NCBI GenBank assembly: GCA_046754225.1
Contig: JBHHVI010000004.1
Location: 147 to 64,146 of the forward strand
Source of the DNA: Thermodesulfobacteriota bacterium
GTDB taxonomy: Bacteria > Desulfobacterota > GWC2-55-46 > JADFVP01
Length of the DNA: 64,000 nt
Direction: 5' to 3'
In this document: positions 3,517 through 56,618 of the stretch, in pieces
Layout: every line of letters begins with the position of its first letter
How positions within the stretch are numbered: the first letter of the stretch is position 1
Notes under the pieces: model-generated
Seen by the model: only the letters and a program-made list of their open reading frames with translations
Database searches by the model: none
Told to the model about the DNA's origin: nothing
Made by a program: the position numbers and the translations under genes

Positions 3517-3732
3517 ATGGAAAAAAAGGTTCTCATCTTCGGCAAGGATACCTGACCCTACACGAGCGCGGCCCGTGAGGATTACGCGAAAAAGGGTTAC
3601 GACGTCGAGTACGTGAATGTCAAAAGCTCCGCCGCGAATATGGACAGGATGCTTGATCTCTCCGGCGGAGGACGCGACGTCCCTCTTATCGTCACAGAGG
3701 GGAAGACTACCGTGGGGTTCGGAGGCACGTGA
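3517..3732 (+). CDS. glutaredoxin-like (NrdH/YruB-type) selenoprotein; the in-frame UGA at 3553-3555 is read as selenocysteine
   Basis: RBS GGGAGG at 3505-3510 then ATG at 3517. Translation is MEKKVLIFGKDT-U-PYTSAAREDYAKKGYDVEYVNV...RDVPLIVTEGKTTVGFGG. The TGA sits exactly where the first Cys of the glutaredoxin C-P-Y-C motif would be, and the protein continues in frame with glutaredoxin-like conservation (VP.IV..G...VGF) for 58 more codons to TGA at 3730. Confidence 0.7.
3557..3581 (+). other. SECIS-like hairpin immediately 3' of the in-frame UGA
   Basis: CACG(3561-3564)...CGTG(3574-3577), extended by c3558-g3580 and t3559-g3579, with an apical loop agcgcggcc. It begins 6 nt after the UGA. 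Confidence 0.4.
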
Positions 3733-5417: not shown

Positions 5418-6431
5418 ATGAAAAATATGAGGGATTTTACATACGAGGACCTTCTGGAAAATGTCTCCTCTCTCGGCGAAAGGCCTTACAGAGCCGCCCA
5501 GCTCTACCGCTGGATATACGGCAAGAGCGCTCCCTCCATAGACGCCATGACGGATATCTCCAGGGCACTGAGGGAAAGGCTGAGGAGAGATTTTTATATC
5601 GGCGGCATTACCGCGGCCGGGGCCCTGGAGGCCGCCGACGGGACCGTTAAGATGGTATTCCGCCTTGACGGAGGCCTTAAGATAGAGTCCGTCATCATCG
5701 CGGAGCCCGACAGGACAACTCTGTGCGTATCAAGCCAGGCGGGATGCGCCCTGGGGTGCGCTTTCTGCATGACCGGCAGAGGGGGGTATAAAAGGGACCT
5801 TAAGCTCTCGGAGCTTACGGGACAGGTCTTTGCGGCGAGGCGGTTTTTGAAGGGCGGCGCCCCGCTTACCAACATAGTGCTTATGGGTATGGGCGAGCCG
5901 CTCATTAATTATGATAATGTAGTCAGGTTCGTTAATATCCTCACCGACGAGCGGGGGTTCGGTTATTCCCACAACAGGGTAACGGTCTCCACGGCCGGGA
6001 TTACGCCCGCAATAAAAAGATTAGGTGAGGATACGTCGGTGAACCTCGCCGTATCCCTTAACGCCCCAACGGATAAGCTGAGGTCGCTCCTTATGCCCGT
6101 GAACAAAAAATACCCGCTTAAGGACCTTATTAAGGCCCTGAAGGAGTACCCCTTGAGGGGCAAAAGGCGTATTACCATAGAGTATGTCCTTTTAAGCGGG
6201 GTGAACGACTCCGACGCCCACGCCCGCTCCCTTAAAAAGGTCTTAAAGGGCGTAAGGTGCAAGATAAACATCATCCCCTTCAACCGCTTTCCCGGCGCCG
6301 CTTTCACGCGCCCCGAAGAGGGCAGGGTGCGGGCCTTCGGGGATATATTGATGCGAGGCGGTTATACCGTCGTTACTCGAAAGAGCAGGGGGGCGGATAT
6401 CGGGGCCGCCTGCGGGCAGCTGAAGGGTTGA
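5418..6431 (+). CDS. rlmN: 23S rRNA (adenine2503-C2)/tRNA methyltransferase RlmN (radical SAM)
   Basis: CVSSQAGCALGCAFC radical SAM motif plus RlmN-specific N-terminal region (RAAQLYRWIY). Confidence 0.9.
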   Translation: MKNMRDFTYEDLLENVSSLGERPYRAAQLYRWIYGKSAPSIDAMTDISRALRERLRRDFYIGGITAAGALEAADGTVKMVFRLDGGLKIESVIIAEPDRTTLCVSSQAGCALGCAFCMTGRGGYKRDLKLSELTGQVFAARRFLKGGAPLTNIVLMGMGEPLINYDNVVRFVNILTDERGFGYSHNRVTVSTAGITPAIKRLGEDTSVNLAVSLNAPTDKLRSLLMPVNKKYPLKDLIKALKEYPLRGKRRITIEYVLLSGVNDSDAHARSLKKVLKGVRCKINIIPFNRFPGAAFTRPEEGRVRAFGDILMRGGYTVVTRKSRGADIGAACGQLKG

Positions 6432-6576: not shown

Positions 6577-7443
6577 ATGAATATGGAAGAGAGGGTGGTG
6601 GGCGTTATAGGCGGGAGCGGTCTCTATGAGATAGAGGGCCTTACCGACGTAAAGCCGGTTAAGGTTTCAACGCCCTTCGGGGACCCGTCCGACGAGTATA
6701 TCACCGGACGTCTCGGCGGGGTAAAGATGGTCTTTCTTCCCAGGCACGGCCGCGGCCACAGGCTCCTCCCCTCGGAGCTCAATTACAGGGCCAACATATA
6801 CGGCATGAAAAAGCTCGGCGTGGAGTGGATAATATCCGTCTCCGCCGTGGGGAGCATGAGAGAGAAGATTAAACCGGGCCACATTGTATTGGTGGACCAG
6901 TTCTTCGACAGGACTAAAGCAAGGCCCTCCACCTTTTTCGGCTCCGGCGTCGTGGGCCACATAGAGTTCGCCGACCCCGTATGCGGCCATTTAAGCGGTC
7001 TCCTCTACAGCGCCGCGGTGGAGGCGGGCGCAGACGTGCACATGGGCGGCACATACATATGTATAGAAGGGCCGCAGTTCTCAACGAGGGCCGAATCGAA
7101 TATTTACAGGTCCTGGGGTGTGGACGTAATAGGCATGACGAACATCCCCGAGGCGAAACTCGCTCGTGAGGCCGAGATCTGTTATGCCACCGTAGCGCTC
7201 TCTACGGACTATGACTGCTGGCACACGGAAGAGGAGTCCGTTACCGTGGAGATGATACTTGAGACCATAAGAAAAAACGTGGCCATGGCCAGAGAGATAA
7301 TAAAGAAGGCGGCCCCGATGGTCAAGGGCCCGAGGGCGTGCGGTTGCGCCACGGCGATGAAATACGCTACGATAACAGATAAATCGGCGATATCAGAGGA
7401 GACGAAAAAAGACCTTGACCTCCTAATCGGAAAGTATCTCTAA
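6577..7443 (+). CDS. mtnP: S-methyl-5'-thioadenosine phosphorylase
   Basis: MTAP/PNP family (VIGGSGLYEI..., GMTNIPEAKLAREAEICYAT). Start trimmed to the ATG at 6577, which has RBS GGGAAG. Confidence 0.85.
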   Translation: MNMEERVVGVIGGSGLYEIEGLTDVKPVKVSTPFGDPSDEYITGRLGGVKMVFLPRHGRGHRLLPSELNYRANIYGMKKLGVEWIISVSAVGSMREKIKPGHIVLVDQFFDRTKARPSTFFGSGVVGHIEFADPVCGHLSGLLYSAAVEAGADVHMGGTYICIEGPQFSTRAESNIYRSWGVDVIGMTNIPEAKLAREAEICYATVALSTDYDCWHTEEESVTVEMILETIRKNVAMAREIIKKAAPMVKGPRACGCATAMKYATITDKSAISEETKKDLDLLIGKYL

Positions 7444-7488
7444 GGGGAGAGGGCATGAATTTTTTAACAGAATAAGGAGCGCGCTGAG

Positions 7489-8397
7489 ATGAGTATTCTT
7501 GTAGTAGGTTCCGTGGCCTTTGACAGTGTAAAGACGCCTTTCGGCGAGGCGGAAGAGGTGTTAGGGGGGTCGGCGACGTATTTTTCCACTTCGGCCAGTT
7601 ATTTCTCCGGCGTTAAACTTGTCGCCGTCGTGGGCTCGGACTTTCCCGACGAGCATCTCGGTAATCTTAAGAAGCGCGGCATAGATATCTCGGGGATAAA
7701 GAAGGTCCCGGGCAAGACATTCAGATGGAAGGGTTACTATGATTACGACCTGAACCAGGCCCATACCCTCGACACACAGTTGAACGTCTTCAGCGATTTC
7801 GACCCCAGCATACCCGACGCCATGGCGGAATCAAAATACCTTTTTCTGGCAAACATAGACCCCGAGCTCCAGTTGAAGGTCCTGGAGCAGGTAAAAAACC
7901 CCAGGCTCATAGCCTGTGACACCATGAACTTCTGGATAGAGGGTAAGCCCGAAGTGCTAAAAAAACTCCTTAAACGCGTGGAGCTCTTCGTTATAAACGA
8001 GGGTGAGGCGAGGGAGTTTTCGGGAGAGGCGAGCCTCGTCAGGGCGGCGAAAAAGATACTGGCCCTCGGCCCGAAGACCCTCATAGTAAAGAGGGGAGAG
8101 TACGGGGCCCTCATGTTCAACGGCTCTTCCGTCTTTTCGGCCCCGGCCTATCCCCTTGAGGAGATATTCGACCCCACCGGCGCCGGGGACAGCTTTGCCG
8201 GCGGGCTTATGGGGTATCTCGCCAATACCGGCGACTTAAGCGATGATAATATGAGAAGGGCCATAATATTCGGCAGCGTCATGGCTTCGTTTAACGTCGA
8301 GGCCTTCAGCATGGGAAGGCTCGGCGACCTCACCAACGAAGAGATACGCGCCCGATATAACGAATTTAAGCGGTTGACCCACTTCGAGGAACTGTGA
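7489..8397 (+). CDS. PfkB-family carbohydrate/nucleoside kinase
   Basis: Ribokinase-like fold with a GAGD motif near the C-terminus (DPTGAGDSFAGG); RBS AAGGAG. Confidence 0.75.
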   Translation: MSILVVGSVAFDSVKTPFGEAEEVLGGSATYFSTSASYFSGVKLVAVVGSDFPDEHLGNLKKRGIDISGIKKVPGKTFRWKGYYDYDLNQAHTLDTQLNVFSDFDPSIPDAMAESKYLFLANIDPELQLKVLEQVKNPRLIACDTMNFWIEGKPEVLKKLLKRVELFVINEGEAREFSGEASLVRAAKKILALGPKTLIVKRGEYGALMFNGSSVFSAPAYPLEEIFDPTGAGDSFAGGLMGYLANTGDLSDDNMRRAIIFGSVMASFNVEAFSMGRLGDLTNEEIRARYNEFKRLTHFEEL

Positions 8398-10378: not shown

Positions 10379-11092
10379 ATGGAGTCCATAATCAGATGTA
10401 GAAAATGCGGAAAGAAGATGCGCTCGGTGCGCGTTGACGACTTCAAGATAAAGTCATATTGTTCATGCGGCTATCTCGAATACCAGACGGCCACCGCGGC
10501 GAGTAAGACCATAAACCCGCACCTTTCGAAACAGAACCTCATGCCCCTTATATTCGACGAGGACGGAAGGTTCCTTTTTCAGGCGGATATCGCGGACAGG
10601 GAACGTAAGGAGATAATCACCCTTGAGGAGGTAAGTATGCTCGCCTCCTCGGATTATGACCTCGATGACGTTTTGAAGACCGTCGCCGAAAAGACAGCCA
10701 ACAGGCTCGGCGTGGATATCTGCTCCATATACCTCTGGGACGGCACGCACCTTGTCTTGAGGGGTACTTACGGTCTCGCGCAGGATGCCGTGGGCAAGGC
10801 GAAGCTGAAAAAAGGCGAAGGTATTACAGGCTCCGCTCTTGAGGCCCGTACGCCGCTTTTGATAGAGGACGTCTCCGGGGACGAGCGCTACCACTTTTTC
10901 CCGGAAACACGGGAGGAGCAGTACAGGATCAAGACCATGTACTCCTATCCCATCTATTCCGGCGACGTACCCTTCGGGGCCCTCAATGTACAGACGGTGG
11001 TGACAAAGGAATTCACTGAAGACGAACTCCGCTTCGTGGGCGTCGTGGCCAATCTCATCCTCGGCGCCGTAAAGATGAGGAAGAGGGGCTGA
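10379..11092 (+). CDS. GAF-domain protein with N-terminal zinc ribbon
   Basis: CRKCGKK...CSCGY zinc-ribbon motif followed by a GAF-like domain (DLDDVLKTVAEKTANRLGVDICSIYLWDG...GEGITG). Confidence 0.65.
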   Translation: MESIIRCRKCGKKMRSVRVDDFKIKSYCSCGYLEYQTATAASKTINPHLSKQNLMPLIFDEDGRFLFQADIADRERKEIITLEEVSMLASSDYDLDDVLKTVAEKTANRLGVDICSIYLWDGTHLVLRGTYGLAQDAVGKAKLKKGEGITGSALEARTPLLIEDVSGDERYHFFPETREEQYRIKTMYSYPIYSGDVPFGALNVQTVVTKEFTEDELRFVGVVANLILGAVKMRKRG

Positions 11093-12726: not shown

Positions 12727-12817
12727 GGAGAGATGCCCGAGAGGCTGAAGGGGGCTGACTCGAAATCAGTTGTTCCGCTTTGCGGAACCGGGGGTTCAAA
12801 TCCCTCTCTCTCCGCCA
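12727..12817 (+). tRNA. tRNA-Ser (anticodon CGA)
   Basis: Cloverleaf with acceptor GGAGAGA/TCTCTCC, anticodon loop ctCGAaa, long variable arm (class II), T-loop TTCAAAT, 3' CCA encoded. Confidence 0.9.
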
Positions 12818-12879: not shown

Positions 12880-12970
12880 GGAGAGATGCCCGAGCGGCCG
12901 AAGGGGCACGACTGGAAATCGTGTGTACATTTATCGTGTACCGAGGGTTCGAATCCCTCTCTCTCCGCCA
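12880..12970 (+). tRNA. tRNA-Ser (anticodon GGA)
   Basis: Same acceptor and T arm as the upstream tRNA, anticodon loop ctGGAaa, long variable arm, CCA encoded. Confidence 0.9.
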
Positions 12971-12988: not shown

Positions 12989-13122
12989 TTTACGGACGCC
13001 GCTGATAGCCGGGTCTTGCGCAATGGGAAAGTCTCAAACCCCGCCAGGTCCGGAAGGAAGCAACGGTAGCGGCTTAAACCCATGTGCCGCAAGGGTGCCT
13101 GGCTATCAGCGGCGTCCGTAAA
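12989..13122 (+). ncRNA. ffs: SRP RNA (4.5S RNA)
   Basis: Conserved domain IV motif CCAGGUCCGGAAGGAAGCAAC. The 22-nt 5' arm tttacggacgccgctgatagcc is perfectly complementary to the 3' arm ggctatcagcggcgtccgtaaa. Classic position upstream of dnaX. Ends are approximate. Confidence 0.9.
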
Positions 13123-20938: not shown

Positions 20939-23260
20939 GTGGATACAGCCACCTTAGAAGCGCTTGAGTTCCCCGAAGTCTTAAGGGCGCTCGCCGAAAA
21001 CGCCGCCACGGCGCCGGGTAAAGACCAGTTACTGGCGCTCCGTCCCTCAGACGACCCTGACCGTGTCGAGGAGGAGTTCAGGTATTACTCCGAGGCCTTT
21101 TCCTTTATCGAAGAGTCGGCCACGTTTCCGCTGGCCGGCACAAATGACTTGAGACCCGTCCTGAAAAGGTCCTTTCCCTCAGGCAGTTTTCTCCTTCCCG
21201 ATGAGTTTTTACTTATCAGGGATAACCTCCGCGTTACAGTTGAACTTAAAAAACTCCTGAAGCCGTCATTTAATAAAAGGTTCCCGCTGCTTACGCCGCG
21301 CCTGGAGGCCCTTTCCGAGGCGGTGCCACTTTTAAGAGAGCTGGAGAGGGCATTCGATGACAAGGGTTTTATAGTCGACGGGGCGTCGGCCCGGCTCTTT
21401 GATATCAGAAAGCGGATGCTCAAGGTCAAGGAGCGCGCGAGGGGGCTCCTTGACGGGTTCTTAAAGGAAAAAGATACAAAAGAGCTCCTGCAGGAGGATA
21501 TCATAACTATAAGGGACGACCGCTATGTCCTCTCCGTGGTGGCCGGCAGGCAGACCGAGGTCCCGGGCGTCATTCACGGCAGGTCCGGAAGCGGGGCGAC
21601 CTTTTTCATAGAGCCTTTGCCTCTTGTGGAGATCAATAACAGCCTTTCCGTATTGAAGAAGGAAGAGAAGTCCGAAGAGATTGAGATATTAAAAGGGCTC
21701 ACAGCAGGCGTAGTCAGGGAGAAAGAAGCGCTCCTCGTTGACCTCGAAGTTATAGCGGGGGTGGATTTCCTTCAGGCGAAGGTCTTTTTCGCGAAAGAGT
21801 TGAGGGCCACGGTGCCGGCCGTAAAAAAGGGCGGCCCCGTAAGCTTTAAGGAGGCGCGTCACCCCTTGCTCGTCATGAAGGAGAGGGCGGGCGGAGGGGC
21901 CGTGGTGGCGGTGGACGTTACGATACCCGAGGATACAAAGGTGGTGGTAATCTCCGGGGCGAATACAGGCGGCAAGACGGTGGCGCTCAAGACCCTGGGG
22001 CTCCTGACCCTTATGGCCTCGTCGGCGATACCCGTGCCAACGGGTGAGGGTTGTTCAGCCGTCATCTTCAGCGAGATCTTCGCCGACGTGGGAGACAGTC
22101 AGGATATCGAGGCGTCTCTGTCCACCTTCAGCGCCCATGTAAAGCGCCTCTCAGGGTTTTTGTCCGGGGCGGGGCCCAATTCACTCGTCCTTATAGATGA
22201 GATAGGGGCCGGCACCGACCCCGCCGAGGGCGGGGCCTTGGCGCTCGCCGCCATTGAGACCTTGAGGAAACAGGGGGCGCTTGTTGTTGTCACCACTCAC
22301 TTGAATATTTTAAAGGCGGAGGCCACGGTAAACCCCGTCTACCGGAACGTATCCGTGGAATTCGATGAAAAGACGCTGAGGCCCATGTACAGGCTCCTCT
22401 ACGGTATGCCGGGGGCGAGCTTCGGCCTGAATATTGCTTCGTCCCTGGGGCTTCCGCGCGAGTTGACGGACCTGGCGGGCACTTACATCCAGGAAAAAGA
22501 GGGCGTCTTCGTGGAGTCCGTAAAGAGGATAGAGGAAGAAAAAGAGGCTCTAACGGCCCTGAATGAAAGGCTCACGGCGCTCGCCGAAAAGAGGGAGGCG
22601 GCGCTTAAAAGGCTCCGCGACGACAGGGAGGTCCTTTTAAAGAAGGCCGGAGCGAGGATAGAGGCCGTGGTGGAGGCGGCGGAGACGGAGATCCGGGCCG
22701 TAATAAAAAGGGTTGAAAGAGAAGGCGGCGGGGGCGTAGGGGCCCGTAAAGAGGTTCATGAAGCGTCCTTGAGGGTGCTGGAAAAGCTCTCACCCGCGAA
22801 GAGGGAAAGGTTTATCCCTTCCGAGGGAGAGAGGGTGAGGATCTCAGGCTCAGGAGCAAAGGGCGTGGTCCTGAGGGTTGACGAAGGCGCGGCGAGGGCG
22901 GAGCTCATGGTGGGAAACCTCAAGGTGTGGGTCGATTGTAAAAGGCTTGAGGGTGTCAACGGGCCGGCCCCCGTAACTATTGCCGCGCAAAACGCCGGCG
23001 TTGACGCCGATATGGAGGCCCCGCTGACCGTTAACCTCCTCGGAATGAGGGGCGAAGAGGCGATGAGGGTGGTTATTAAATTCCTCGACAACGCCCACGC
23101 CGAAGGGCTCGAAAGGGTCGAGATAATCCACGGCCTTGGTACGGGCGCGCTCAAGAAAATGGTCTCGGGATTTTTGCGGGAAAGTAAACTGGTAAAGGGT
23201 TTTTACCCGGCGGCCCCCTCCGGGGGAGGGGCCGGGGTCACGGTAGTCGAGCTCAAATGA
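20939..23260 (+). CDS. mutS2: endonuclease MutS2 (MutS domains plus C-terminal Smr)
   Basis: Walker A GANTGGKTV, MutS domain III/IV, C-terminal Smr (LLGMRGEEA...IIHGLGTGALKK); GTG start. Confidence 0.9.
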   Translation: MDTATLEALEFPEVLRALAENAATAPGKDQLLALRPSDDPDRVEEEFRYYSEAFSFIEESATFPLAGTNDLRPVLKRSFPSGSFLLPDEFLLIRDNLRVTVELKKLLKPSFNKRFPLLTPRLEALSEAVPLLRELERAFDDKGFIVDGASARLFDIRKRMLKVKERARGLLDGFLKEKDTKELLQEDIITIRDDRYVLSVVAGRQTEVPGVIHGRSGSGATFFIEPLPLVEINNSLSVLKKEEKSEEIEILKGLTAGVVREKEALLVDLEVIAGVDFLQAKVFFAKELRATVPAVKKGGPVSFKEARHPLLVMKERAGGGAVVAVDVTIPEDTKVVVISGANTGGKTVALKTLGLLTLMASSAIPVPTGEGCSAVIFSEIFADVGDSQDIEASLSTFSAHVKRLSGFLSGAGPNSLVLIDEIGAGTDPAEGGALALAAIETLRKQGALVVVTTHLNILKAEATVNPVYRNVSVEFDEKTLRPMYRLLYGMPGASFGLNIASSLGLPRELTDLAGTYIQEKEGVFVESVKRIEEEKEALTALNERLTALAEKREAALKRLRDDREVLLKKAGARIEAVVEAAETEIRAVIKRVEREGGGGVGARKEVHEASLRVLEKLSPAKRERFIPSEGERVRISGSGAKGVVLRVDEGAARAELMVGNLKVWVDCKRLEGVNGPAPVTIAAQNAGVDADMEAPLTVNLLGMRGEEAMRVVIKFLDNAHAEGLERVEIIHGLGTGALKKMVSGFLRESKLVKGFYPAAPSGGGAGVTVVELK

Positions 23261-23357: not shown

Positions 23358-25103
23358 ATGATACCGAAAGAAAAGATAGATGAACTGAGAGAACGGGTAA
23401 GTATCGTACAGGTGGTCTCCGATTACCTGCCCCTTAAAAAAAAGGGCGCCAACTGGTTCGGCCTTTGCCCCTTCCATTCGGAAAAGACCCCGTCCTTCTC
23501 GGTCAACGAAGGCAAGAAGATATTTTACTGTTTCGGTTGCCATGAAACGGGAAGCGCCATTACCTTTGTGATGAAAAAGGAAGGGGTGGAGTTTCCAGAG
23601 GCCGTAAGGACGCTGGCGTCGAGATTCGGTGTTGTTATAAAGGAAGAAAGGCCGGGGGCCGCTGGATACAAGGATTCCCTTTACAAATTGAACGGCGTTG
23701 CCAGGGATTTTTTCGCAAGGGAGCTTAAATCCACTGAAGCGGCCCCCGCAAGGGCCTATCTCAAAAAGAGGGGCTTTGACGACTGGCCGCTGTTAAAAAG
23801 TTTTTCCATGGGGTTCGCGCCTTCCGGATGGGAGGGGCTTGTCCGTTACCTTCGAAAGAAAGGCATTTCCCTTGAACTCGCCGGGAAGGCCGGCCTTGTG
23901 GCGAGAAAGTCGAAGGGATATTACGACAGGTTCAGGAGCCGGATTATCTTTCCCATAACGGACGTAAGGGGCAGGGTTGTGGGGTTCGGCGGGAGGTCGT
24001 TCGGCGACGCGGGGCCAAAGTATCTTAACACCCCGGAGACGGCGCTCTTTAAAAAGGGTGAGACGCTCTTCGGGTTCCATCAGGCCAGAGAGAGCCTTAA
24101 GGAGACGGGCTACGCGATAATCGTGGAAGGTTACTTCGACCTTATGGCGATGCATTACCACGGTTTTACAAACACCGTGGCTACGCTGGGCACGGCCATG
24201 AGCGCCGCTCATCTACGCGCGCTCAAGGGTTATACGGACAGCGTCTACGCCCTCTTTGACGCGGACGCCGCCGGAAGGAAGGCGAGCCTCAGGTCGCTGG
24301 AGTTCTTTCTCAATGAGGATATGAGGTGCGGGATTATAAGCCTCGGCAATTCCAAGGACCCCGATGAGTTTTTATCGGCTAACGGCCCGGAGGCCATGCG
24401 AGAGGCCGTAAAAGGCGTTAAGCCCCTTTTGAAATTTTATCTTGACGAGATTGGAAAGGGTTTTGATTTAAAGAGGCCCGAAGGCAAGGCCCGTTACCTT
24501 GAAGAGGCCATCGCCTGCTTGGCGAGGATCAAGAACGTGGCCGAAAGAGACCATTACGCCGGTTACGTGGCGGCCGCGGCTTCCATCCCCGCTTCTTCCG
24601 TTTACGAGGCCCTTGGGAAAAAATCCGTCAGGCACAGGAGGGCGGGTGGCGGCCTTAGCGGCGCGGGCGTGTTAATGGGGCTTGCGGCCCTGAAGGGTTC
24701 GGCCCTTGCGGAGATTACCATACTCAAGGTAATCGTCAACCACCCGGGACTCTACAGCCCGGACGTCCCGGAGGCCGTCGAGGCCTTTAAGGACGGGGGC
24801 CTTAAAGAGGCGGGAAGGAAGATATGCGAACGCCTGAAGAGCGGCAATGGCCTGGACATATCGGTGCTTGCCGAGGACCTTTCAGACGAAAAAACTTCAG
24901 GCGTGGCCGTGGCCGGGTTATTCAGAGACGATGACGGTTTTATAGAGGAGCCTGAAAAGATGCTCAAAGAAAGTTTGAAAAAGGTCATGAACAGGGGTAA
25001 ACTTAAATCATCCACCGAAGAGATGATTAAAAGGCTTGAGGAGTCCGGCAGGGCTGAGATAGCGAGCGAGATCAGGGCGAGGGTTGATAAGGATATGCTT
25101 TAA
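23358..25103 (+). CDS. dnaG: DNA primase
   Basis: Zinc-binding [13 protein letters not shown]...YCFGC, Toprim domain (EGYFDLMA), C-terminal DnaB-interaction region. Confidence 0.93.
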
Positions 25104-25150: not shown

Positions 25151-26683
25151 ATGGGAGACAAAGAGGAGATGCCGGAAATTAAAAATGCCGGCCCGGAGCC
25201 AGGGGACGGCGAAGGTGATGTCAAAGGCGAGACGCTCCCCGAAGCCGCCGCCCCGGAGACGGTGGTGCAGCCCCCGAGCGCGGTACGCGACCCTGTAAGG
25301 GCGTACCTCCGGGAGATGGGTTCCGTCGTTCTTCTTACCAGGGAAGAAGAGGTGGAACTGGCTAAAAGGGTGGAGGAGGGGAGGGCCGCCATCACGAGGG
25401 AGTTTCTGCGGTCGCTGCTTGTAGTGGAAGAACTGAACGCACTTAAAAAGAGGCTTTCCGAGAGGAAAGGGCTCGAGGAGGAGGTTCTCGAATTTGATGA
25501 TTATGAAGGGCTTTTAAGCGAGAACGAAGATGACCTTGAGGAGGTCTTTAATGAGATAGAGGAAATAAACAGATTATATAAGAAGGTCAGCTCAAAAAAG
25601 GGGGCGACGAAGTCTCAGAGGGCCAGGCTCCTGACGATCCTTCTTGATGTTGAGAAAAAGAGTAATATATTCGACAGGGTGATTGACAGGCTGCAGGAAA
25701 GCGAGGAGGAACTTATAAGCCTCAAGGGCAAGAGGGCCTCTATGGAGAAGGCCCTTAAAGGCGGCAGGTATAAGGCCGGGGCCGCGGCCGGGAAGATGAA
25801 AGGCGGTGAGGGCAAGGCCGCCGGGGCGAGGGCCGGGTTATTAAAGGAGTTGAGGCTCAATAAAAAGAGGGAGAAGGAGATTATAGAGGAGACGGGGCTG
25901 AGTTTCGAGGAGCTCACCGAGGTGCTCAACGCCCTTGCCGCATGGGAAGATTATATTGAGCAGGCGAAAGAGAGGCTTATAAAGGCTAACCTCAGGCTTG
26001 TGGTGAGCATAGCGCGCAGATACATAAACAGGGGGCTTCAGTTCCTCGACCTCATTCAGGAAGGCAATATCGGCCTTATGCGGGCCGTTGAGAAGTTCGA
26101 GTACCAGAGGGGCTATAAATTTTCCACATACGCCACGTGGTGGATACGCCAGGCCATCTCCCGGGCCATAGCCGACCAGGCGCGCACCATACGCATACCC
26201 GTGCACATGATAGAGACCATCAATAAACTGATGCGCTCCTCCCATTATTTCGTGCAGGAGAACGGCAGGGAACCTCACCCCGAAGAGCTGGCGGAGAAGA
26301 TGTTGATGCCCTTTGACAAAGTGAGAAAGATATTGAAGATCGCCAAGGAGCCCATCAGTCTGGAGACCCCCGTGGGCGACGAGGGGGACAGCCTGCTCGG
26401 CGACTTCATCGAGGACAAGGAGGCCGTAATCCCCCATGACGAGATTATAAGTAACGACCTTACAGGCCACATGAACGAGGTGCTCTCCACGCTTTCACCC
26501 CGCGAGGAGAAGGTCCTGAGGATGAGGTTCGGCATCGGGGAGTCCAAGGACCATACCCTCGAAGAGGTTGGGGGGTATTTTAACGTCACCCGAGAGAGGA
26601 TCCGCCAGATTGAGGCGAAGGCCCTGAGGAAATTAAGGCATCCCAAGAGGTGCAGAAAATTAAAGTCCTTTTCGGAAAATTAA
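25151..26683 (+). CDS. rpoD: RNA polymerase sigma factor RpoD (sigma70)
   Basis: Regions 1.2-4.2 ([49 protein letters not shown]); dnaG-rpoD synteny. Confidence 0.95.
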
Positions 26684-26830
26684 GAAGGTTTAAGATTAAA
26701 TATCGCATTTTTTAATGGACTGTCTCTCTTGCCGGTTCTATATTTTCTATTTTTTAGGTTTTTTAACTATTTGAATTTATTGTATTTTACAAGAGAAGTT
26801 ACATTTTTTATAAAAAATATCAATTTCCTA

Positions 26831-26858
26831 TTGACATCACTTCTTTTTTCTGTATAAT
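26831..26858 (+). promoter_or_regulatory. near-consensus sigma70 promoter with upstream A/T-rich UP-like tracts
   Basis: TTGACA (26831-36), 16 nt spacer ending in TG, TATAAT (26853-58), preceded by ttttttataaaaaatatcaatttccta. Lies in a ~340 bp AT-rich spacer unlike the flanking GC-rich DNA. Confidence 0.65.
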
Positions 26859-26915
26859 AGGCATTAAGATTTAAAGCCTGGCGCTCAGGATGGGCCCGGG
26901 CTTTCAGGTGAAGAC

Positions 26916-26957
26916 GCCATTATATAACCATCCCGGTTATATACATGGCTTTTTTTT
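26916..26957 (+). terminator. intrinsic-terminator-like hairpin within the 5' leader of the cytochrome gene (candidate attenuator)
   Basis: gccat-tatataacc-atccc-ggttatata-c-atggc (14 bp stem with one bulged C) followed by TTTTTTTTgcTTTTTT. An upstream alternative pairing tggcg(26880-26884)/cgcca(26914-26918) overlaps the terminator's 5' arm. Confidence 0.5.
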
Positions 26958-27022
26958 GCTTTTTTAAATAAACCTCATTAATTCAAGCTATATCTATTAA
27001 TCAAACTGAAGAAGGGGGCCGC

Positions 27023-28048
27023 GTGAAGAGAAGATTGTTAACAGGCTTATTAGTCTTAACGGCAGCGCTCTTCATTAAAGCGGATATCTCCTCTTCAGCA
27101 ACGGGCACGCAGGGCGTCGCCGGGACCGTTGCCGCGTACACGAATGGTCTCGCCGCCAACGGCATCGTAGGCACAAGGCATAACATGGGCGCCTTCGGCG
27201 GCCCGATACGTACCAATGCCACAACTCAGGTATGCGTCTTCTGCCATACACCTCACCACACGAATCAATCTGCCGCCCCGCTCTGGAACAGGTCCACGGC
27301 CAACTCGACGAGTTATCAGGCTTACGGGTCTACCATAGGCGGCAGTAATATAACGACGGTAGACGGAGGCGCCTCCATCGCGTGCCTCAGTTGCCATGAC
27401 GGCGTCACCACCTTTGACAGCATTGTCAACGCCCCTGGAAACGGCGGGATTACCGCAGGCGGTTCCGACCAGCAATGGTCGTTTATAATGGCTGACGTAG
27501 GGTTGGACCTGGGTGCTTGGGACCATTTCGGCACTCCAGGTAATGAGAACGTCTGGTGTACTGCCTGTCACGGCACCGGAGGTTTTGCTCAAGGCCCGAA
27601 CACATGGCAGCGTCTCTCTATTGGCACGGACCTCACAAACGACCACCCCGTCTCGGTTACCTATTCCGGCAACACAAAGGCGAGCCTCAGGGCAAAGACT
27701 ACCGTACTGGGCACCATAGACCTTACGACCGGGCTCAGCAACACAAACTCATTAAGCGCATATTACCAGGCCATGACCCAGAACCGCTGGGCCGTAAACG
27801 GTTCCATCTCTGACACCGCCAATATCAGCGCTCTCTTGAGGAACGATAAGGTGGAGTGCAGTTCGTGCCACGACCCGCACTTCAAGAACCTCTCCTGGGA
27901 CGAGGCGGATGCCTCCTATGACGCCAATTATACAATCGGCGGCGCGAGCAAATGGTGCAGCGGGGACGCTTGTATCGACGGCCTCTTCTTAAGAAGGGTG
28001 GGCGGCAACACGGGCTCAGGCGTTTGCAGGACCTGCCACGATAAATAA
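27023..28048 (+). CDS. secreted pentaheme c-type cytochrome, Thr/Ser/Asn/Gly-rich, OmcS-like by motif pattern
   Basis: Sec signal peptide (MKRRLLTGLLVLTAALFIKA). Five CxxCH motifs: CVFCH, CLSCH, CTACH, CSSCH(DPH) and a C-terminal CRTCHDK*. Low-complexity T/S/N/G-rich composition and many N-x-S/T sequons. GTG start with RBS AGGGGG. Confidence 0.75.
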   Translation: MKRRLLTGLLVLTAALFIKADISSSATGTQGVAGTVAAYTNGLAANGIVGTRHNMGAFGGPIRTNATTQVCVFCHTPHHTNQSAAPLWNRSTANSTSYQAYGSTIGGSNITTVDGGASIACLSCHDGVTTFDSIVNAPGNGGITAGGSDQQWSFIMADVGLDLGAWDHFGTPGNENVWCTACHGTGGFAQGPNTWQRLSIGTDLTNDHPVSVTYSGNTKASLRAKTTVLGTIDLTTGLSNTNSLSAYYQAMTQNRWAVNGSISDTANISALLRNDKVECSSCHDPHFKNLSWDEADASYDANYTIGGASKWCSGDACIDGLFLRRVGGNTGSGVCRTCHDK

Positions 28049-28134
28049 TCAACCGCCGCTGGGCCTTGATACGGGGATAGACGCGGGGGCTTGATAAAGG
28101 CGGCGCCCTTAACAAGAAGATAAAAAAGTTTTGA

Positions 28135-28164
28135 AGGCCTCTCTTTCAAAAGAGAGGCCTTTTA
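28135..28164 (+). terminator. rho-independent terminator after the cytochrome gene
   Basis: AGGCCTCTCTT-tcaa-AAGAGAGGCCT followed by TTTT. Confidence 0.8.
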
Positions 28165-28280
28165 ATATTGTCTCCGCAGGGCTAACCCCTCTTGCCGGGC
28201 TTCATGGGCAAAATTCCGTGACGCTGTCCCCGTGGGGGGGGAATAAAAGACCACGGCCCGGAAAAGAGGGCTCAAAATGT

Positions 28281-28308
28281 TTGACTTGGCCCGTCTTTCT
28301 GTTATAAT
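28281..28308 (+). promoter_or_regulatory. sigma70 promoter with extended -10 for rpsU
   Basis: TTGACT (28281-86), 16 nt spacer, TGtTATAAT (28300-08); about 145 nt structured leader before rpsU. Confidence 0.55.
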
Positions 28309-28453
28309 CTTCAGGCCTAAAAGCCATACCGTGAGTAGTAAAGGCCCCTCCGGCCTGTTACCCTTTTACGGGCGCGAGGAGCCTTTTAACACCTGCATGG
28401 TGTAATATTCTCAGCAGGGAAAAAATTTTTTATCAGGAGGAGGTGTATTATTT

Positions 28454-28657
28454 TTGTCAGAGGTCAAGGTTTATGACGACCAGCTTGAAAAGGCGCTAAA
28501 GATACTTAAGCGTAAACTCGCTCAAGACGGGACCTTCAAGGAGATAAAGAAGAGAAGGTTTTACGAAAAGCCGAGTGTTAAGAAAAAGAGAAAGCGCCAG
28601 GAAGCGGCCAAACGCCGCGCCAAGGCGTTAAAAAAGACGAGAAGGCGTTATGATTGA
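28454..28657 (+). CDS. rpsU: 30S ribosomal protein S21
   Basis: (M)SEVKVYDDQLEKALKILKRKLAQDG... with a basic C-terminus; TTG start 7 nt after RBS AGGAGGAGG. Confidence 0.9.
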   Translation: MSEVKVYDDQLEKALKILKRKLAQDGTFKEIKKRRFYEKPSVKKKRKRQEAAKRRAKALKKTRRRYD

Positions 28658-55682: not shown

Positions 55683-56618
55683 ATGCATCTGCTAAGAATC
55701 TTCGATCTAAAAAAGACCGATATAGATAACCTCCTCATAAGGGCGGCTTCTTTAAAGGAGCGGCACCGTAAGGGGATACCCCACCACCCCTTGAGGGGAA
55801 GGGTATTAGGGCTTATATTCGAGAAGTCCTCGACAAGGACGCGCGTATCCTTTGAGACGGCCATGTACCATCTCGGCGGCTCCGCCATCTTCATAAGCCC
55901 GCGGGATTCGCAGATAGGCCGGGGCGAGCCCATAAAGGACACCTCGCGCGTCATGTCCGGATACGTGGACGGCGTCGTCATAAGGACCTTCGGCCATGAG
56001 AAGATTGAGGAGTACGCCCGGTACTCAACGGTGCCGGTCATAAACGGCCTTACCGACGCCCACCACCCCTGCCAGGTCCTTTCCGATATATTGACCGTCG
56101 TGGAGAAGAAGGGGTCTTACAAGGGGATAAAGGCCGCGTGGGTCGGCGACGGCAACAACATGGCCAACTCATGGATAGAGGCGGCGGCGCTCCTCGGCTT
56201 TGACCTGACCCTCGCCTGCCCCGAGGGGTACAGGCCCGCGGCGGAGTTTATAAAGGAGGCGAAGAAAAAAGCGTCATCGAAGATTCAAGTGGCGGCCTCC
56301 CCCGAGGAGGCTGTAAAGGGGGCCGACGTCATAAGCACCGATGTCTGGGCCTCAATGGGACAGGAGGAAGAGGAACGGGAGAGGGAAAAGGTCTTTAAGG
56401 GTTTCCAGCTCAATTCAGAAATATTGGCCCTCGCGAAGAAGGACGCCGTGGTCATGCACTGCCTTCCCGCACACAGGGGCGAGGAGATAACAGAAGAGGT
56501 CCTCGAAGGTAAAAGCTCCGTTGTCTGGGTCCAGGCGGAAAACAGGCTCCATATGCAGAAGGCCGTGCTCGAATGGCTTCTTGTTGAAGGCGGGGAAGGC
56601 GGCGAAGCCGTACGTTAA
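55683..56618 (+). CDS. argF: ornithine carbamoyltransferase
   Basis: STRTR carbamoyl-phosphate motif, HPCQ, HCLPAHRGEE. Confidence 0.92.
   Translation: MHLLRIFDLKKTDIDNLLIRAASLKERHRKGIPHHPLRGRVLGLIFEKSSTRTRVSFETAMYHLGGSAIFISPRDSQIGRGEPIKDTSRVMSGYVDGVVIRTFGHEKIEEYARYSTVPVINGLTDAHHPCQVLSDILTVVEKKGSYKGIKAAWVGDGNNMANSWIEAAALLGFDLTLACPEGYRPAAEFIKEAKKKASSKIQVAASPEEAVKGADVISTDVWASMGQEEEEREREKVFKGFQLNSEILALAKKDAVVMHCLPAHRGEEITEEVLEGKSSVVWVQAENRLHMQKAVLEWLLVEGGEGGEAVR

Follow-up and report, generated by a model that had tools for sequence, protein, structure and literature searches.

In a 64,000-nucleotide (nt) stretch of contig JBHHVI010000004.1 from a Thermodesulfobacteriota bacterium (the window; positions are counted from its first letter), an AT-rich spacer separates rpoD from the gene for a secreted multiheme cytochrome, which is followed by rpsU. 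We propose, with a probability of roughly 0.7, that this locus is a native, vertically inherited unit consisting of a five-heme OmcE-like cytochrome, an AT-rich compound control region, and a conditional transcription attenuator. Because a conserved leader RNA lies between the promoter and the gene and ends in an intrinsic terminator, a strong promoter would here be gated by transcription attenuation. An earlier note on this DNA had read the same stretch as a horizontally acquired or specially regulated high-expression module, and it overlooked both the internal terminator at 26916-26957 and the conserved leader RNA. The parts of the unit are as follows.

26684..27022, + strand: AT-rich intergenic control region of the cytochrome gene, 339 bp, GC content 0.319
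26803..26830, + strand: A/T-rich element abutting the -35 hexamer, as seen when 23 cytochrome-linked promoters are aligned at the -35
26831..26858, + strand: consensus sigma-70 promoter, TTGACA-16-TATAAT, 12 of 12 positions matched
26873..26904, + strand: hairpin P1, lower stem AAAGCCUGG/CCGGGCUUU, top GCUC-[AGGAU]-GGGC at 26883-26895; -20.1 kcal/mol
26905..26906, + strand: linker CA between P1 and P2
26907..26918, + strand: putative mini-hairpin P2, GGUG-[AAGA]-CGCC; -4.2 kcal/mol alone
26916..26957, + strand: intrinsic terminator (the proposed attenuator), 14-bp stem with one bulge (26916-26949) and U8 (26950-26957); -16.7 kcal/mol, z = -6.1
26958..27022, + strand: distal leader, 65 nt, with Shine-Dalgarno sequence AAGGGGG at 27012-27018, 4 nt before the GTG
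27023..28048, + strand: secreted 341-amino-acid (aa) cytochrome with five CxxCH motifs and a GTG start (open reading frame [ORF]; Pfam Paired_CXXCH_1 and Cytochrome_C7)

Conservation of the surrounding gene order places the unit in the ancestry of its lineage. On the forward strand, mutS2 (20939-23260), dnaG (23358-25103), rpoD (25151-26683), the cytochrome gene (27023-28048), and rpsU (28454-28657) follow one another, and past rpsU come acs, on the opposite strand, and hisS, according to the ORF list and Pfam. The cytochrome gene is thus set into an rpsU/dnaG/rpoD neighborhood, as the earlier note had stated. The same series from mutS2 to hisS, with acs again on the minus strand, is found at loci L001-3, L004-6, L007, L008, L009, L010, L014, and L025, which are species-level representatives and metagenome-assembled genomes (MAGs) named Thermodesulfobacteriota or "Deltaproteobacteria," and two metagenome contigs (L136 and L143) have the identical order. 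The arrangement recurs in at least nine other genomes or contigs, and the junction from rpoD through the leader to the cytochrome is constant across the syntenic relatives, in which the cytochrome is 51-60% identical to that of the window and MutS2, DnaG, RpoD, Acs, and HisS are 48-75% identical. Their rpoD-cytochrome spacers (n = 8) are likewise AT-rich, with a GC content of 0.29-0.41.

The earlier note called for a comparison of composition as well as of synteny. The roughly 340 bp before the cytochrome gene are as AT-rich as it described: the spacer, at a GC content of 0.319 against a window mean of 0.543, is the lowest of the 19 spacers of at least 100 bp, the next poorest having 0.369 and 0.371. 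In 200-nt windows over 26600-26999 the GC content is 0.30-0.335, and in the flanking genes it is 0.50-0.66. This AT-richness is confined to the noncoding spacer. The cytochrome gene itself, with a GC content of 0.568 and a GC content at third codon positions (GC3) of 0.675, falls inside the range of its neighbors, and its codon-usage deviation (Karlin B of 0.302) ranks 26th among 59 genes and 7th among 28 genes of similar length. Pfam labels of the neighboring genes include no integrase, transposase, or other mobility gene. The earlier note had held that an arrangement and composition conserved across the lineage would make the stretch ancestral rather than acquired; since the same order and the AT-rich spacer are kept across a deep lineage, with the cytochrome between rpoD and rpsU in all nine relatives found, acquisition is refuted by that note's own reasoning. 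Judged from these comparisons, the AT-rich stretch is a native, ancestral control region and not imported DNA.

The product of the gene is, by sequence homology, a relative of the filament-forming cytochrome OmcE, and we name it OmcE-like. It is the secreted multiheme cytochrome that the earlier note recognized, with a signal-peptide-like N terminus. Its only significant matches among solved structures are the OmcE filament subunits 7TFS (Geobacter) and 9YUQ (Desulfuromonas soudanensis), with E values of 3.2e-15 (phmmer, single sequence) and 3.2e-21 (profile) for 7tfs_A and 1.5e-16 (profile) for 9yuq_N. Blocks collinear with OmcE include the N-terminal RHNxG histidine, CxFCHTPH, CLSCHDG, LGTDLSNDHPV, CSSCHDPH, and the C-terminal CxxCHxK. 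The four CxxCH motifs and four further heme-ligand histidines that characterize OmcE are all present, together with one additional CxxCH, which the family alignment identifies as C179-H183. Nine histidines are invariant (H53, H75, H78, H125, H183, H208, H283, H286, and H339) and H79 is kept in at least 90% of sequences, which is enough for five bis-histidine hemes. Collinear homology and secretion are shared with OmcE of Geobacter sulfurreducens (7TFS) and of D. soudanensis (9YUQ); OmcE has about 220-230 aa, whereas the window protein has 341 aa, with the fifth CxxCH in an insertion and one further insertion. A preprint raises the possibility that "5-heme OmcE-like" proteins of uncultured bacteria form a new nanowire family (bioRxiv 10.1101/2025.10.22.684050), and the window protein fits that group. 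It is probably an extracellular electron-transfer or "nanowire"-type subunit, and from its homology we infer that it could assemble into such filaments.

The family to which this cytochrome belongs is large, with more than 6,600 homologues, mostly unnamed and mostly MAG derived. One database entry, "MAG: Thermodesulfobacteriota bacterium ACE5EB_01345," is 100% identical, and the same MAG has two further paralogues, 79% and 62% identical, in tandem elsewhere; exact-sequence look-ups of the window cytochrome and its paralogues returned no record. A second conserved family locus (L207 10001-10990 and L208 9005-14118, also L011, L012, and L013) carries one to five tandem cytochrome genes between ligA, on the minus strand, and rplM-rpsI. 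One leader motif stands before the first copy, the last copy ends 92-102 nt before rplM, and the cytochrome genes run in the same direction as the ribosomal-protein genes that immediately follow them; in L208, five tandem cytochrome genes lie behind a single leader. This lineage repeatedly parks these cytochromes beside housekeeping or ribosomal-protein genes, at rpoD/rpsU in the window and at ligA/rplM-rpsI for paralogues. In the gammaproteobacterial MAGs L042, L052, and L080, a distant OmcE-like homologue (30-34% identical) is encoded some 2.6-3.3 kb past rplM-rpsI, a spacing that over most of its range could accommodate an intervening petABC (bc1) operon.

Control of the gene begins with an exceptionally good promoter. 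The pattern TTGACA-N16-18-TATAAT occurs once in the 64 kb, counting both strands, where 0.01 occurrences are expected. The hexamers and spacing that the earlier note gave stand at every position; its added "TG" does not, as the dinucleotide abuts the -10 (cTGTATAAT) and is out of the TGnTATAAT register. TTGAC[AT]-16-TAnAAT is present in nine of nine syntenic loci, and the promoter is conserved in nonsyntenic loci too. Its position would put the transcription start near 26865. Upstream of the -35, the A/T tracts reported earlier are seen at 26803-26830. Between about 28 and 4 bases ahead of the -35 hexamer, the 23 cytochrome-linked promoters have an AT fraction of 0.8-1.0, and the version in relatives reads TATTAAA-n4-5-(C/G)ATTAATTTTCC, in which two ATTAA-like words are spaced about 11 bp apart. 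Although A/T-rich and conserved, the tract has conserved words (ATTAA repeats and AATTTTCC) that differ from the canonical UP consensus, and the element could equally be a UP element or a transcription-factor site. Within the spacer of the cytochrome-linked promoters, TTTTAAT is frequent. The "specially regulated high-expression module" of the earlier note finds support in this consensus promoter and in the structured, terminator-bearing leader that follows; its high-expression half does not, as the codon usage of the gene is unremarkable.

The whole 5' leader is about 160 nt long, and alignment of the spacers reveals a conserved RNA of about 90 nt that begins about 15 nt past the promoter. 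An RNAalifold consensus of the nine syntenic leaders has 22 pairs, 10 of them with compensatory changes, and both P1 and the terminator stem covary. When strands of the lower P1 stem were paired with their cognate partners, the mean energy was -6.65 kcal/mol, compared to -3.42 kcal/mol for noncognate strands, and none of 20,000 permutations reached the observed mean. The top pairs of P1 are near invariant (G-C, C-G, U-G, and C-G) and close a 5-nt loop of the form A-N-G-R-N, with the A in 29 of 30 instances and the G in all 30. A linker of 2-10 nt leads to P2, whose 4-5-nt loop has a matching A-N-G-R signature. The bases GGY...GCC are invariant in 33 of 33 instances, and the rest of each terminator varies freely. 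In the window, the GCC at 26916-26918 is shared, being both the last three bases of P2 and the first three of the terminator stem. We propose P2 as an antiterminator.

A stable hairpin with a U tract between promoter and start codon, and with no further promoter downstream of it, is what is expected of an attenuator, and this is what the leader contains. The terminator is present in every motif instance. In the nine syntenic spacers, the promoter is followed 24-54 nt later by the motif, and the U run ends 30-175 nt before the start codon; in the window, the start codon is 66 nt beyond the end of the U8, and 26958-27022 contains no credible second promoter. In L208 and L009 the distance from U run to start codon is only 27-30 nt, too short for a promoter, so the gene there must be transcribed through the terminator.

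The distal part of the leader shows some variations of its own. In L015, L016, L020, L024, and L030, a complementary A tract plus GCC(U/A) lies within a few bases of the 3' strand and U tract of the terminator, as in GGCAUUUUUUUU-AUUCAU-AAAAAAAAUGCC. In read-through transcripts such an arrangement could fold into an alternative hairpin, or it could act as a bidirectional terminator; the window copy lacks such an A tract. The distal leader of L023 (about 5740-5960) contains about six tandem repeats with a unit of roughly 30 nt (ACCGGCUCACGCAGGUGGGC...).

The association of this leader with the cytochrome family extends beyond the syntenic loci. A covariance model built from the nine syntenic leaders (R1) found 10 further copies and no other match at an E value of ≤1 in about 900 kb of fetched loci. 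All 10 are on the coding strand, directly upstream of nonsyntenic family members, and each is preceded by TTGACA-17-TATAAT; additional copies are those of L106, L174, L178, L207, and L208. A weak match in the window itself (55708-55808, minus strand) is antisense inside an ORF and was dismissed as chance. Rfam 15, which includes GEMM-I and GEMM-II, gave no match at the gathering score for the leader region, with only noise at an E value of ≤10, and no match at an E value of ≤1 for eight other motif-carrying loci. A literature search with the string of the conserved P1 top returned only unrelated primers.

Metagenome contigs selected by a degenerate DNA pattern provided at least 120 matches, and copies were scored with a second model (R2). 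Of the 120 pattern matches listed, 115 do not adjoin this cytochrome family, and about a dozen of those look like real copies. The motif stands before csrA in two contigs (L175 and L161), before a cytochrome c'-like gene in two (L161 and L089), before genes for PqqD and a Cys-rich peptide (L094/L147 and L138/L173), and before an LpxB-like gene (L176). In L114 (4255-4326, identical to L204 3366-3437), a copy with P1 pared down to its conserved top is directly upstream of an operon encoding a PocR-GAF-GGDEF protein, an anti-sigma-like ATPase, a STAS protein, and an HD-GYP protein. L089, a 13-kb soil contig, has four copies, at 2287-2372 and 3572-3659 on the minus strand and at 7470-7555 and 10594-10684 on the plus strand, which precede genes for a cytochrome c'-like protein, a Ysc84/SYLF protein, Hsp20 (about 470 nt away), and an S30AE hibernation factor. 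Three of these four copies and one of the two in L161 fail the search pattern and are therefore independent detections. The noncytochrome copies sit behind promoter-like sites, and the upstream ATTAA-type element is missing from them. Nearby in L089 are a protoglobin histidine kinase and, by eye, a universal-stress-protein-like ORF; the gene set of this contig looks like a stress or hypoxia regulon.

How the leader might work can be proposed from its anatomy. From a start near 26865, the first 95 nt or so would fold into P1 and then into the intrinsic terminator with its U8, and by default RNA polymerase would stop at about 26957, releasing a short leader RNA of about 95 nt. A terminator stem that ends too far from its U tract cannot terminate. 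Upon induction, a trans-acting factor would stabilize the weak P2 and sequester the GCC at the base of the terminator; the shortened upper stem would then be too distant from the U tract, termination would fail, and polymerase would read through into the cytochrome gene. P2 appears too weak to win alone, so a trans factor would be needed. Such a factor could be a small ligand or an RNA-binding protein that reads the A-N-G-R loops of P1 and P2. By analogy with ANTAR regulators, the likeness of the two loops and the conservation of their closing pairs suggest an RNA-binding protein that acts as a dimer or has two sites.

The resemblance to ANTAR targets, such as the eut, nasF, and amiE leaders read by EutV, NasR, and AmiR, is considerable. 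These also have two short hairpins with similar loops and a short linker, conserved closing pairs matter in them, and termination is prevented by stabilizing their second hairpin, which shares sequence with the 5' side of an intrinsic terminator. The mutual exclusion of second hairpin and terminator has its counterpart here in the GCC shared in 33 of 33 instances. ANTAR dual stem-loops have at least 3 bp each and a linker of 2-25 nt; here P1 is well supported, and P2 has three invariant pairs plus a fourth in 26 of 33 instances (p of about 0.04). The loops differ, however. ANTAR targets have hexaloops with A1 and G4, and Met172 of EutV has been proposed to exclude smaller loops, whereas here the P1 loop is a pentaloop, the P2 loop measures 4-5 nt, and the conserved positions are A1, G3, and R4. 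In addition, only 3-4 nt of P2 overlap the terminator, unlike in ANTAR targets. As the hexaloop definition does not describe it, we have not filed this leader as an ANTAR target. Pfam labels of the neighboring genes include no ANTAR domain (PF03861); no ANTAR search of the genome was made.

Several findings weigh against the unit as we propose it. P2 is supported by invariant bases and by one weakly covarying pair, the fourth, which forms in 26 of 33 instances as GU, AU, GC, or UA and is marginal by permutation (p of about 0.04). No candidate regulator adjoins the cytochrome gene. Sequences in L087 (2195-2288), L112 (6839-6932), and L189 (2169-2262) that match the search pattern but read as protein-coding, being crossed by an in-frame ORF, score 37-39 bits with R2, which sets a practical noise level, so pattern-selected matches near that score are not proof by themselves. 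On the protein side, true omcE genes cluster with those for a porin, two beta-propeller lipoproteins, and two multiheme cytochromes (bioRxiv 10.1101/2025.10.22.684050), and no such porin, beta-propeller lipoprotein, or partner cytochrome gene is found among the neighbors here, which are mutS2, dnaG, rpoD, rpsU, acs, and hisS; the second locus type, with ligA and rplM-rpsI as neighbors, likewise lacks the omcE cluster. Finally, an AlphaFold2 model calculated without hemes was poor, with a predicted local distance difference test (pLDDT) score of 47.5, and was unusable for fold comparison.

The main alternative, which we consider unlikely, is a riboswitch that senses a small molecule, for example a cyclic dinucleotide or some other second messenger, with the two similar loops of the leader jointly forming the ligand pocket. 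The downstream genes recall cyclic-dinucleotide regulons, with cytochromes, the GGDEF/STAS/HD-GYP operon, csrA twice, the hibernation factor, Hsp20, Ysc84, and the cytochrome c'-like gene twice, although this is a lead only. The motif also occurs in compositionally very different contigs, and the P1 top has invariant pairs that include a conserved U-G. There is precedent in Geobacter, where omcST, pgcA, and omcAHG are gated by terminator-type GEMM-Ib riboswitches (PMC6456294). The GEMM-Ib (cyclic AMP-GMP) and GEMM-I/II (cyclic di-GMP [c-di-GMP]) classes resemble the present leader as terminator-type leaders that gate extracellular multiheme cytochromes, with a regulon overlap in cytochromes and GGDEF/HD-GYP proteins. 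Unlike them, this leader has no sequence or structure match in Rfam even at an E value of ≤10, to GEMM or to any other riboswitch, and its conserved core is far smaller: some 20 nt make up two terminal loops with the pairs that close them. Neither a junction nor a pseudoknot was detected in it, and inspection by eye revealed no covariation between the loops, which leaves a kissing contact without support.

The conserved element could instead be primarily a separate gene for a small RNA of about 95 nt that acts in trans, the cytochrome being expressed from leaky read-through only. A consensus promoter and a strong terminator do bracket a conserved structured RNA at the extreme 5' end, one soil contig has four copies in 13 kb and another contig has two, and about 470 nt separate one copy from the next gene. 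Yet each copy is followed by a gene in the same orientation, in most cases at a distance of 27-175 nt, the cytochrome gene has no other promoter, and the terminator base includes part of the most conserved sequence, GGY...GCC, as would be expected of an expression platform. Roles as a small RNA and as an attenuator are also not mutually exclusive. We judge this reading improbable as a replacement for conditional attenuation.

Equally hard to sustain, and in our estimate slightly more doubtful, is a constitutive, unregulated terminator that only insulates the gene from dnaG-rpoD read-through and trims the output of an overly strong promoter, with P1 stabilizing the 5' end. A terminator scan found no terminator-like hairpin between the rpoD stop codon and the cytochrome promoter, and 5'-terminal hairpins are known to stabilize mRNA. 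But the leader is also present where the upstream gene is divergent, as with ligA on the other strand in L207 and L208, and no insulation is needed there. Moreover, the loop and closing-pair sequences are invariant across unrelated contigs, which neither a generic stabilizer nor a generic terminator would require.

Least credible is the acquired cassette of the earlier note, in which a single insertion between rpoD and rpsU would have brought in the promoter, leader, gene, and terminator: the sharp compositional break, the self-contained promoter-to-terminator layout, and an evolutionarily dynamic cytochrome family with many paralogues and tandem arrays all speak for it, but it is largely refuted by the native GC, GC3, and codon usage of the coding sequence, by an AT-richness that is only noncoding in a window where other spacers go down to 0.37, by the lack of integrase or transposase labels among the neighbors, and by an arrangement kept in at least nine other genomes or contigs despite flanking proteins that are only 48-65% identical, so that any insertion would be older than the divergence of the lineage.

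Other readings of the leader were tried and rejected on the pattern of conservation. A CsrA sponge or binding site fails because AGGAUG is present in the window copy only and GGA is missing from most loops. For a T-box or tRNA mimic, neither the UGGN nor the CAU feature is conserved. Leader-peptide attenuation has neither a conserved AUG in the P1 loop (A-N-G) nor a Shine-Dalgarno sequence. In the case of guanidine-II-like kissing loops, loop position 2 is variable and inter-loop covariation is absent, and pairing of the P1 loop with the 5' strand of the terminator works in the syntenic subgroup only.

The genes and signals on either side of the unit complete the layout.

25151..26683, + strand: rpoD (sigma-70), upstream neighbor (ORF; Pfam Sigma70 regions 1.2, 2, 3, and 4)
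28133..28162, + strand: terminator of the cytochrome transcript, 13-bp stem, -20.9 kcal/mol, z = -5.7, 0 shuffles equally stable
28281..28308, + strand: rpsU promoter, TTGACT-16-TATAAT with extended -10 TG in register, 11 of 12 positions matched
28454..28657, + strand: rpsU (ribosomal protein S21), TTG start (ORF and Pfam)

The strong terminator that the earlier note placed ahead of a separate rpsU promoter is thus present within the 405-bp spacer between the cytochrome gene and rpsU. Its U tail is short (UUUUAAUAUU), and it was absent from the list of a simple consensus scan; L001 and L004 have a hairpin at the equivalent position. The rpsU promoter is kept in L001, L004, L009, and L010. Behind this near-consensus extended -10 promoter, rpsU has a leader of 145 nt (28309-28453), and the rpsU leaders of relatives are likewise long (127-173 nt or more), with barely conserved sequence; the leader in the window may be autoregulatory for S21. 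As in the rpsU-dnaG-rpoD macromolecular-synthesis operon of Escherichia coli, dnaG lies next to rpoD on the same strand, with rpsU close by. In contrast to that operon, rpsU here lies downstream of rpoD with its own promoter and with the cytochrome unit between them, in an order fixed in the lineage. More distant syntenic relatives have extra ORFs between the cytochrome and rpsU (L010 7243-8426 and L014 7438-7941), coding on the minus strand for coiled-coil lipoprotein-like proteins of 167-225 aa, plus a 132-aa ORF in L010, and L009 has a gap of similar size there (about 6972-8312, or 1.3 kb). Elsewhere in the window are two tRNA genes (12727-12814 and 12880-12967) and a small signal recognition particle RNA (13007-13107).

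This locus is also a cautionary case, in that a sharp AT-rich break beside housekeeping genes can be an ancestral promoter and leader rather than acquired DNA. Were the proposed reading true, the gene for a candidate conductive-filament cytochrome would belong to the core of a whole uncultured Thermodesulfobacteriota lineage, being fixed in the chromosome and strongly promoted, and its siting between the genes for the main sigma factor and a ribosomal protein, with paralogues before rplM-rpsI, would point to extracellular electron transfer as a housekeeping function. An attenuator RNA absent from Rfam would gate this cytochrome and recur, in unrelated contigs, ahead of genes for c-di-GMP enzymes, csrA, and stress genes. 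More tentatively, and at somewhat less than even odds, the leader of P1, P2, and terminator may be an undescribed, phylogenetically widespread cis-regulatory RNA, either a tiny riboswitch for a cyclic dinucleotide or redox messenger or the target of new dimeric antiterminators, that switches on nanowire-type cytochromes along with c-di-GMP enzymes, csrA, and dormancy or stress genes in uncultured bacteria of sediment, groundwater, and soil. An RNA of about 90 nt would then provide a testable handle on when uncultured electroactive bacteria make their nanowire-type cytochromes.

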